Below are positions 18,892 to 20,671 of a DNA stretch of 64,000 bases, piece by piece; within the stretch, counting starts at the first letter, position 1; every line of letters begins with the position of its first letter. The stretch spans positions 1,190,099 to 1,254,098 of the forward strand of contig OZ253456.1 in the NCBI GenBank assembly GCA_965261225.1, written 5' to 3'. This DNA comes from Dehalococcoidia bacterium (GTDB lineage: Bacteria; Chloroflexota; Dehalococcoidia; Bin125). A program made the position numbers and the translations under genes. The notes beneath the pieces are model-generated. The model ran no database searches and was not told the DNA's origin. It was given only the letters and a program-made list of their open reading frames with translations.

Positions 18892-20671
18892 CTGGGTCTG
18901 GGCGCTCATGCGACTGGTCGTCGCTGGATGCTGCGCGCTGGTCGTTCGGGACGCGTACGAATCGCTCCTCGATGAGGTGATCCAACACCAGCCTGGCATT
19001 GCCGCGTGCGGACTGTTGGACAGTGTCAAGCGAAATCTCCGGGTGTTGCGGAGCTTCATACGGATCATCGATCCCGGTGAAGTTGGAGATCTCACCGCGG
19101 CGCGCCCTGGCGTACATGCCCTTGGGGTCGCGCTCCTCGCAGACATGGAGCGGCGTGTCGACGAACACCTCGATAAAGCGCTCGGATCCGACCATGGTCC
19201 GTACCTCATTTCGCACAGCGCTGTAGGGGCTCACGGCCGCGCAGATTGCGACTCCGCCATGACGGACGATTTCCGAGGCGACGAATCCAATCCGGCGAAT
19301 GTTGGCGTCGCGGTCGTCTTTGGAGAAGCCCAGACCTTTGGATAGATGCGTTCTGACGACGTCTCCGTCGAGCACCGTCACCCGCCGCCCGTGCTCCATG
19401 AGCAGTCCCGTGAGCAGCTCGGCGGTTGTGGACTTGCCTGAACCGCTGAGACCGGTGAACCAGACGCACACCCCCTGGCGATGCTTCGGCGGATTGTGCT
19501 CAGCCACGATCCTGGCGACCTCGGGTAAGGCCATCCAGCTCGGCAGCGTTCGCCCCTGGCGCGAGTTCTCCTCACCCATCTGCGGCGGATTGGGCATGGC
19601 TCCACCCGCGCGTACGGGACGAACGGCGACCTCAGTGCGCGTCTCGCCGCCGGTGTCGTCCACCGTCCAGCGAACGGTCACAGCTCTCACTCCGCTCTCA
19701 TCGCGGTACCGGTCGACGAGTTCATGGGCGTCGTCTGGGCTGTGGATCGTGGCGCCCAAGGAGTCGTCGGGGGGACTGGCGTAGTCGCGGCCGACGATCA
19801 GATGGTTGGCGCCGTAGTTGCGTCGGATGATCGCGTGCCAGAGCGCCTCTCTCGGTCCGGCAAACCTCGTCGCCAACGGCAGCAGCGATAACAGCACCCG
19901 ATCGCTCTCGTAATAGTGGAGCGACAGCGTCCGGTACGTGCGGATGCGCGCGTAATGGTCCACCTCCCCGGTATTGGTCAACCCCGCTGCCGGATGAAGC
20001 AGCAGCACCCCGTCCAGACTCTCAGCGGCCCGCCGAGTGAGTTCCTCTTCGGCCCGGCGAAACGGATCGCAGGCATGGAAGGCCACGACGTTGCCTCGGC
20101 CGTAGGCGGAGAGCTCGGCCCGGGTCTCGCGCGGTGTTCGCCTCAGTTCGGTGAAGTCATAGTGTCGTGGAAGCTGCAACACCTGGAGCGGGCCGGATAC
20201 GTTCACCTTCCCCCAGCGCTGCATCTCGGACACGAGTGGATGCCGCGCGTCGCGAGTGCCGAGTACTTGATCCGCGAGCTCCAGCGGGTTCCACTCGTAC
20301 GCCTCCTGAATCGTCATGACCGCGAGCAGATCGTTTCGGGCATCGCGCAGGGCCACGTCAGTATCGAGTTTGACGGCAGAAGCGTCTTCGATGGACAGGG
20401 TTACTGGAACAGGAAACAGCATGCCGTCGGCCAGCCGCATATCGGCGACCGATCGACGGTAGTCGTCCTCGCCCATGAACCGGTCAAGAGGCGAGAACGC
20501 CCCCGTCGCAAGAAGCTCGAGATCGCAGGTCGCGCGTTCGGACAGCTGAATGCTGTCCAATCGTCCGGCGCGGTCCTTGAGATCGGCGAATCGCTCCTGC
20601 GGAGCCACGAGGTCGATCAGCTCGCCGCCGTAGGGCGCGATCAGGCCGGTCTGTTCGATCGAGGACGCCAT
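18881..20671 (-). CDS. sat/cysC: Fusion of an ATP-sulfurylase-like domain (N-terminal, catalytic motifs degenerate) and adenylylsulfate (APS) kinase (C-terminal)
   Basis: The 596-aa ORF's N-terminal half aligns with ATP sulfurylase (VVAF..., [38 protein letters not shown]), but QTRN is replaced by HACD, HRAH by RRAE and GRDHAG by GRDYAS. The C-terminal half is canonical APS kinase ([55 protein letters not shown]). The last three codons and the stop lie inside the IS5 right inverted repeat. Confidence 0.85.
   Translation of the reverse strand: [596 protein letters not shown]

Follow-up and report, generated by a model that had tools for sequence, protein, structure and literature searches.

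An APS kinase fused to an apparently inactivated ATP-sulfurylase domain beside a sulfotransferase-family gene in a Dehalococcoidia bacterium

The satL/cysC gene of a Dehalococcoidia bacterium raises the question of whether a protein built like a bifunctional ATP sulfurylase/adenosine 5'-phosphosulfate (APS) kinase can still perform both reactions. The gene lies in a 64-kb stretch of contig OZ253456.1, the whole of which is referred to as the window. A reading frame of 596 codons was listed on the reverse strand, with an ATG start and the ribosome-binding site GGAGGA 8 nt upstream of it, and the Pfam domains PUA_2, ATP-sulfurylase and APS_kinase followed each other in that order. A sequence-only reading of the window had proposed that the N-terminal part was sulfurylase-like and catalytically inactive, whereas the kinase was intact. 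Based on all comparisons, we consider it likely, with a probability of about three in four, that the product is a monofunctional APS kinase with a recently inactivated sulfurylase domain, which would deliver 3'-phosphoadenosine 5'-phosphosulfate (PAPS) to an adjacent sulfotransferase, retain the inactive domain as a scaffold and depend on APS made elsewhere.

The motifs of the sulfurylase-like domain were aligned by phmmer to characterised Sat enzymes, namely the Aquifex aeolicus Sat/APS kinase (PDB 2gks), which was the best PDB match of the window protein (E 7e-182), and the Penicillium enzymes 1i2d and 1m8p. The catalytic motifs were ungapped in all three alignments. In the alignment with 2gks, VAFQTRNPMHRVHEELT was paired with a 17-residue stretch without any gap, and GRDHASP was paired with GRDYASP. 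The explanation by a mere shift of the motifs was rejected, since no gaps were found across any motif; the motifs were replaced in register. Positions 19780-20090, to which the sequence-only reading had drawn attention, lie within the sulfurylase-like domain (aa ~195-298, from VVAF to GRDY), and the domain assignment itself was borne out by Pfam. The replacement of QTRN by HACD and of HRAH by RRAE, noted in the same reading, was recovered in register against 2gks and in an alignment of 120 homologs.

Further, the best 120 homologs, drawn from a 5.8-billion-protein collection, were aligned with MAFFT. The pattern QTRNP[LI]HR[AV]HEE was present in 112/112 homologs at 71% identity or less. The pattern HACDP[FV]RRAEEE was recorded only in the query and in eight relatives of 82-93% identity (P0001-P0008), with a single HAYD, a Cys to Tyr change, in P0006. 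Hence, six of the six catalytic positions in the QXRN and HXXH motifs (Q199, T200, R201, N202, H205 and H208) were replaced, and these same positions were invariant in 112/112 canonical homologs. The canonical homologs that carried names were labelled as bifunctional Sat/CysC of Acidimicrobiia, Chloroflexi/SAR202 and others.

The third motif was changed less uniformly. The sequence-only reading had contrasted GRDYAS with GRDHAG; however, the canonical form in this subfamily is GRDHA[SG]PG, so that the final Ser is normal and only H297Y, together with G301P, represents a change. The Tyr (VGRDYAS) was found in the query and P0001 only, and GRDH was kept by 7/9 clade members, so that H297Y, being limited to this subclade, was regarded as a later step. 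G301P was present in all members. The position of ISGTQVR, where PNPPQMG occurs in the window protein, was occupied by PAATQLS or PVPTQLG in the other members, and PFYGPY was replaced by TIHSPD (window) or PLYRPD. TVR was found at the position of the PFR motif, in a region that is variable within the clade. M268T and K213R were further losses; several more invariant residues were changed, and the RYEE stretch downstream was altered as well. The Arg and Asp of the GRD loop and the PREALWH stretch were retained.

The four conserved motifs of ATP sulfurylases are QXRN, HXXH, VGRDHAG and PFR, of which QXRN anchors the phosphosulfate group and HXXH positions ATP or pyrophosphate (PMC6607087). Arg197 touches sulfate and the alpha-phosphate, and His204 lowers the energy barrier most; substitution of either His of HXXH, or of its Arg, by Ala abolished the sulfurylase activity and left the kinase activity in place (PMC6607087). 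The same outcome was reported for human PAPSS1 when H425 or H428 was changed to Ala (PMC11697783). Asn355 and Arg362 are active-site residues of the yeast enzyme (PMC6607087). By the alignment with the P. chrysogenum enzyme, and in our own numbering, ISGTQVR would begin just past yeast Asn355 and finish at Arg362.

The motifs of the APS kinase domain are all intact. Walker A, DGD, LGFS..DR..NIRR, SPY and FTGIDDPYE were invariant across 37 aligned sequences including the query. The P-loop and DGD had thus been read properly from the letters, but ISN, which had been counted with them, is not a conserved kinase motif.

The curated NCBIfam models gave a score of 691.4 bits for NF004040 (bifunctional Sat/CysC equivalog, cutoff 669), 326.2 bits for TIGR00339 (cutoff 322.95) and 222 bits for TIGR00455 (APS kinase, cutoff 139). 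Canonical relatives reached 819 bits with NF004040 and 435 bits with TIGR00339 (canonical P0009). The score of the sulfurylase-domain model was therefore about 100 bits below that of the canonical relatives, when the kinase model score was the same.

The decay was confined to one domain. Sites conserved in at least 97% of the 112 canonical homologs were considered changed when at least one clade member differed. By this measure, 48/124 conserved sites were changed in the sulfurylase domain (27 of them in nearly all members), as compared with 4/56 in the PUA domain and 4/104 in the kinase domain; the difference between 48/124 and 8/160 elsewhere was significant (Fisher p = 7e-13). Hence, 39% of the otherwise invariant positions of the sulfurylase domain were changed, and they varied within the clade. 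The Kimura distances to the outgroups for variant and canonical proteins were 0.69 and 0.33 for the sulfurylase domain, 0.58 and 0.53 for PUA, and 0.32 and 0.28 for the kinase, respectively.

The ratios of nonsynonymous to synonymous substitution rates (dN/dS) were estimated by the Nei-Gojobori method and bootstrapped over codons, each group being represented by four sister pairs that were phylogenetically independent. For the sulfurylase domain, dN/dS was 0.49 (confidence interval, CI, 0.32-0.74) in the variant clade and 0.14 (CI 0.10-0.20) in canonical Acidimicrobiales, and this order was reversed in 0/1000 bootstrap replicates. When only aa 300-392 were taken, the values were 0.74 and 0.11; aa 171-299 gave 0.34 in the variant clade. 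Values of 0.24 and 0.22 were obtained for PUA, and 0.15 and 0.09 for the kinase, in the variant clade and canonical Acidimicrobiales, respectively. Purifying selection is relaxed in the sulfurylase domain only. The inactivity of the sulfurylase-like domain next to an intact kinase is thus strongly supported by comparative evidence, that is, by the motifs, the changed invariant sites and dN/dS. Since the lost motifs differ among the members and H297Y occurs in one subclade, stepwise drift after an initial inactivation was proposed; the catalytic motifs would have been lost first, and the C-terminal subdomain would have drifted afterwards.

The proposed sequence of reactions starts from a sulfurylase-like domain that would make no APS, as QXRN, the His pair of HXXH, ISGTxxR and, in the window protein, the His of the GRD loop are lost. 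If so, APS must come from another enzyme of the cell, whether CysDN, which the sequence-only reading had named as an example, a stand-alone Sat or a second Sat/CysC. PAPS would then be formed from this APS by the kinase domain and be used by the Stf-type sulfotransferase, whose gene lies two genes upstream. The PUA and sulfurylase-like domains, which make up the N-terminal two-thirds of the protein, would be kept as a folded structural partner, serving as an oligomer scaffold and providing interdomain contacts, by analogy with the APS kinases of T. denitrificans and E. histolytica; by analogy with the Entamoeba APS kinase (PMC13213808), a regulatory role of the inactive domain is possible. The sequence-only reading had also considered a channeling of PAPS. 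No support was obtained for it, because a dead first domain would yield no APS to channel.

A different fate of the domain was considered, in which it has been repurposed to bind a nucleotide (APS, PAPS or ATP), another ligand or, through the new His/Cys/Asp/Glu side chains, a metal, and acts as an allosteric or sensing module that adjusts the kinase or as a dock for the sulfotransferase. Such a role appears improbable. It would agree with the constancy of HACD and RRAE, which among the nine members differ only by the one Cys to Tyr change, with a core (aa 262-296) that is almost unchanged and with the lower dN/dS of aa 171-299. Precedents exist as well, since the inactive domain of the Entamoeba enzyme modulates its kinase (PMC13213808) and in the reverse fusion of Penicillium a dead kinase domain serves as the allosteric site at which PAPS binds. 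However, the constancy of the six substituted positions within the clade did not exceed the background expectation (36% of the sulfurylase-domain sites vary within the clade, P = 0.30), so that a newly selected site is not indicated; the Cys itself is Tyr in P0006. Moreover, ISGTxxR, PFYGPY and the His of the GRD loop differ between members and the C-terminal part is near-neutral (0.74), which points to a release from constraint rather than to a new site.

It is considerably harder to maintain that the protein is still a bifunctional Sat/APS kinase working with non-canonical residues, such as Arg205 and Arg206 in place of the lost Arg and His. Both curated sulfurylase models are passed, the Arg and Asp of the GRD loop and PREALWH are kept, and no other ATP sulfurylase of the hosts was found among the larger reading frames of the window, the best 80 of 233 relatives and the matches listed for a native Dehalococcoidia Sat/CysC. 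Nevertheless, all six QXRN/HXXH positions are replaced when a single His to Ala change is enough to disable PAPSS1 (PMC11697783, PMC6607087), ISGTxxR is lost, and the changes at invariant positions vary within the clade. A dN/dS tripled in the sulfurylase domain only would be unexpected under selection for catalysis.

A decaying pseudogene, or substitutions arising from assembly or sequencing errors, might be suspected in a mobile, rearranged region with an IS5-type remnant downstream and with recombinase, integrase and restriction-modification genes nearby, but this is scarcely credible, as the same substitutions recur in at least nine independent assemblies, two complete chromosomes among them, with an unbroken reading frame in all, dN/dS of only 0.15 for the kinase and 0.24 for PUA, and a conserved order of the module.

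Several observations weigh against the preferred reading of a monofunctional kinase with a decayed sulfurylase half. Low divergence inflates pairwise dN/dS somewhat, and the value for the kinase is also slightly raised (0.15 and 0.09). The sulfurylase-like domain has not reached a dN/dS of 1, and one stretch of 33 residues is nearly unchanged; a role of the domain beyond bare folding is possible. The AlphaFold2 (AF2) model, built from the 37-sequence alignment, suggests that the domain still folds, with template modelling (TM) scores of 0.68/0.76 against 2gks in Foldseek. The model is mediocre, with a mean predicted local distance difference test (pLDDT) score of 67 and values below 50 at aa 296-309 and 334-377, and thus says little about the pocket. 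AF2 confidence was also low in a 19-residue C-terminal extension, which the window protein shares with P0001 (locus L082), its closest relative, and which is absent from the 577-aa clade members.

The source of APS was searched for as well. In the 64-kb window, the window protein matched only itself by tblastn, and Pfam scans found no second sat and no cysD or cysN among the larger reading frames. Two complete chromosomes labelled Dehalococcoidia, OZ253471.1 and OZ244584.1, are the named genomes that contain clade members (n = 2), and each appeared once among the best 80 of 233 relatives, which is a weak negative. When a native Dehalococcoidia Sat/CysC (L041) served as the query, none of the matches listed lay on the host contigs, again a weak negative. 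It is unlikely, slightly more so than the repurposing described above, that the hosts have no other ATP sulfurylase or that a new ligand or a new chemistry has arisen in the HACD/RRAE pocket (for example, metal or redox sensing through His/Cys/Asp/Glu, or sensing of APS or PAPS). If this were true, the "dead" domain would be a newly evolved regulatory or catalytic module controlling PAPS for a horizontally acquired sulfation pathway in symbionts.

The origin of the variant was approached through its relatives, for which a scan of genome contigs was used and the best 80 of 233 relatives were taken in. The nearest canonical enzymes (68-71% identity) were encoded in metagenome-assembled genomes (MAGs) of Acidimicrobiales, one of them Candidatus Spongiisocius variivorans. 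Most of these loci contained the same three partner genes as the window, but after sat/cysC rather than before it, with identities of 75-81% for the DUF1214 protein, 56-60% for the sulfotransferase and 59-69% for the short-chain dehydrogenase/reductase (SDR). Other canonical copies were found directly after cysH, in native Dehalococcoidia lineages and on another metagenomic contig, which is an assimilatory context. On contig ERZ28763718 ctg125673 (5.41 Mb; L088 and L089), two blocks of about 98% identity, each comprising a major facilitator superfamily transporter, cysH and a canonical sat/cysC, were located at 5.32 Mb and 3.81 Mb. They were flanked by transposases, and the assimilatory version of the enzyme has therefore also been duplicated or moved by insertion sequence (IS) elements.

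In neighbour-joining trees, the variant clade was monophyletic in 200/200 bootstraps. It was sister to the module-bearing Acidimicrobiales in 192-200/200 bootstraps, whether the kinase, PUA plus kinase or the sulfurylase domain was used, and well separated from the four native lineages of Dehalococcoidia Sat/CysC. Since the module is common to Acidimicrobiales, with a canonical enzyme, and to the variants in Dehalococcoidia MAGs, the whole module was probably moved between the phyla. We proposed that it was acquired by a Dehalococcoidia-type lineage from Acidimicrobiales-type bacteria, and that the sulfurylase half would have been redundant in the new host and then decayed.

The module consists of four co-oriented genes (Table). 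Their order, DUF1214, Sulfotransfer_3, SDR and satL/cysC, was the same in every readable clade member (L001-L003, L082-L086). The block was conserved by blastn with 87-90% nucleotide identity in L001-L003 and L084-L086, and beyond it similarity was limited to the close relative L082 and the recombinase region of L002. A scan of the module for promoters and terminators yielded nothing above shuffled sequences.

The DUF1214 protein was 91-93% identical in L001-L003 and matched PDB 6ans, an uncharacterized protein (E 6e-114). The SDR was called with the same length in L001, L082 and L084-86. The sulfotransferase matched PDB 2zq5 (E 3e-54) and 2z6v (E 9e-48), which we take to be mycobacterial Stf sulfotransferases, 2zq5 presumably being M. 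tuberculosis Stf1 (Rv3529c). Its neighbours Rv3530c, a "possible oxidoreductase", and the hypothetical Rv3531c have been placed in the cholesterol-catabolism region (PMC6429209). By this analogy, the DUF1214/sulfotransferase/SDR trio may be a conserved actinobacterial module, and its acceptor may be a steroid or a lipid.

The surroundings of the module were also inspected. Directly downstream of the satL/cysC stop codon, the remnant of an IS5-type transposase (DUF772, PF05598) was spread over at least two frames by frameshifts. On the other side, a large serine recombinase (Resolvase + Recombinase + Zn_ribbon_recom) has a counterpart in L002 (1604-5551). The recombinase region adjoins the module in OZ253471.1, and in the window about 5 kb, including a GMC oxidoreductase gene, is inserted between them. 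The presence of this region beside the module in both the window and L002 suggests that the module is on or beside an integrative element. Very large adhesin-like surface proteins of 636-2710 aa, built of repeats of the cadherin-like, bacterial Ig and fibronectin type III kinds, are encoded in three intervals of the window; proteins of this sort have often been described from sponge symbionts. Also identified were a Type ISP restriction-modification enzyme, a tyrosine integrase, a helicase, a DUF6094 methyltransferase and a Rad52/22 protein. Mobile and defence genes are abundant throughout the window, and its right half resembles a mobile or defence island. The GC content rises from about 0.62 to about 0.68-0.70 past 44 kb.

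Table. Positions in the window of satL/cysC, its domains and motifs, the gene module and the neighbouring features.
Feature	Position	Strand	Basis
satL/cysC gene, 596 aa	18881..20671	-	Pfam domains, NF004040, best PDB match 2gks
PUA-like N-terminal domain, aa 11-166	20174..20641	-	PF14306, 153 bits
ATP-sulfurylase-like domain, aa 175-391	19499..20149	-	PF01747, 167 bits
APS kinase domain, aa 399-573 (Pfam span aa 399-549)	18953..19477	-	PF01583, 215 bits
HACD for QTRN (QXRN motif), aa 199-202	20066..20077	-	2gks and homolog alignments
RRAE for HRAH (HXXH motif; both His gone), aa 205-208	20048..20059	-	2gks and homolog alignments
GRDYAS for GRDHAS (GRD loop)	19775..19792	-	homolog alignment
PNPPQMG for ISGTQVR	19574..19594	-	homolog alignment
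Walker A P-loop GLSGSGKST	19427..19453	-	homolog alignment
LDGD kinase motif	19361..19372	-	position check
C-terminal extension, 19 residues	18881..18950	-	
SDR oxidoreductase, third gene, 338 aa, GTG start inferred from orthologs	20776..21792	-	Pfam adh_short
Sulfotransfer_3 (Stf-type, PAPS-dependent family), second gene	21824..23089	-	PF13469, 157 bits
DUF1214-family protein, first gene	23104..24288	-	PF06742, weak match
Four co-oriented genes (DUF1214, sulfotransferase, SDR, satL/cysC)	18932..24430	-	blastn conserved block
IS5-type transposase remnant	17840..18526	+	DUF772, PF05598
GMC oxidoreductase	25032..26543		
Large serine recombinase	29305..30948	-	Resolvase + Recombinase + Zn_ribbon_recom
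Very large repeat proteins, interval 1	10623..15664	-	
Very large repeat proteins, interval 2	38140..42327	-	
Very large repeat proteins, interval 3	45368..53500	+	
Mobile/defence genes	33756-36902, 42513-43646, 54116-56473, 57585-58613, 62549-63535	-	Pfam

The practical consequence concerns annotation. As the equivalog cutoffs are passed, pipelines will name the protein a bifunctional Sat/CysC and credit it with a step that the gene almost certainly cannot perform, so metabolic reconstructions of these Dehalococcoidia MAGs need a check of the QXRN and HXXH residues. The inactivation appears unusually young, with active orthologs about 70% identical in the same gene module, and would allow the inactivation of a domain to be followed, as a clean natural experiment, inside a sulfation module that is shared horizontally. 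The occurrence of the module across two phyla points to a transferable pathway for a sulfated metabolite.

The closest solved structure is that of the Aquifex enzyme 2gks, which has the same architecture and length and 51-52% identity in the Foldseek alignment; however, its QTRN, HRVH, ISGTEIR and the His of the GRD loop are all replaced in the window protein. The ATP sulfurylase of P. chrysogenum (1i2d/1m8p, E 6e-125) is likewise a two-domain fusion in the same order with one half disabled. It is a mirror image of the present case, as the fungal kinase half is the dead one and binds PAPS as an allosteric inhibitor.

The nearest functional parallel is the APS kinase of T. denitrificans (TdAPSK, PDB 3cr8; Gay, Segel and Fisher 2009, as cited in PMC13213808 and PMC3734648). 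It has the same fold and domain order, with an N-terminal sulfurylase-like domain free of the catalytic residues and an active-type APS kinase, and the window protein was comparable to it by both structure (TM 0.63/0.74, Foldseek) and sequence (E 1.5e-97, phmmer). PMC13213808 attributes to its dead domain a presumed stabilising effect on the oligomer, a hexamer. However, TdAPSK is only about 32% identical to the window protein, aligned in two pieces, and the degeneration of its domain is ancient and heavy (QARQ, HRAQ, GGEH), whereas the window protein shares 68-71% identity with fully canonical enzymes, with which it groups. By these identities and the sister placement, the loss is an independent one; a functional kind is shared, not a lineage.

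In the Entamoeba enzyme (EhAPSK), an inactive sulfurylase-like domain is also joined to an APS kinase, and its PAPS feeds sulfotransferases that make sulfated metabolites; deletion or mutation of the dead domain alters the kinase activity, which this domain influences by way of interdomain contacts (PMC13213808). This protein is probably PDB 23vk/23vl, and the match of the window protein to 23vk was mostly through the kinase domain. EhAPSK differs in being eukaryotic and distant, with a sulfurylase-like domain 22.6% identical to that of Aquifex (PMC13213808). In EhAPSK, the substrate-binding loop is deleted and a linker fills the site, whereas in the window protein the loops are present and their residues are replaced.

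The frequency of such proteins was estimated from the best 150 of the matches in 1.84 billion cluster representatives, 132 of which contained both domains; motifs were scored by regular expressions on the alignment, and the counts are approximate. With the kinase motifs (Walker A, DGD) intact, none of the sulfurylase motifs (QxRN, HxxH, GRD) was present in 56 representatives, some in 16 and all in 43. Degenerate kinase motifs were recorded together with all sulfurylase motifs in 12 representatives and with partly or wholly degenerate ones in 5. Hence, 72/132 combined degenerate sulfurylase motifs with intact kinase motifs. The arrangement of a dead sulfurylase and a live kinase is thus already described and common. 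As judged by its alignments and trees, the window protein is an independent, young loss within the canonical NF004040 family, and for that reason it still passes the curated models.

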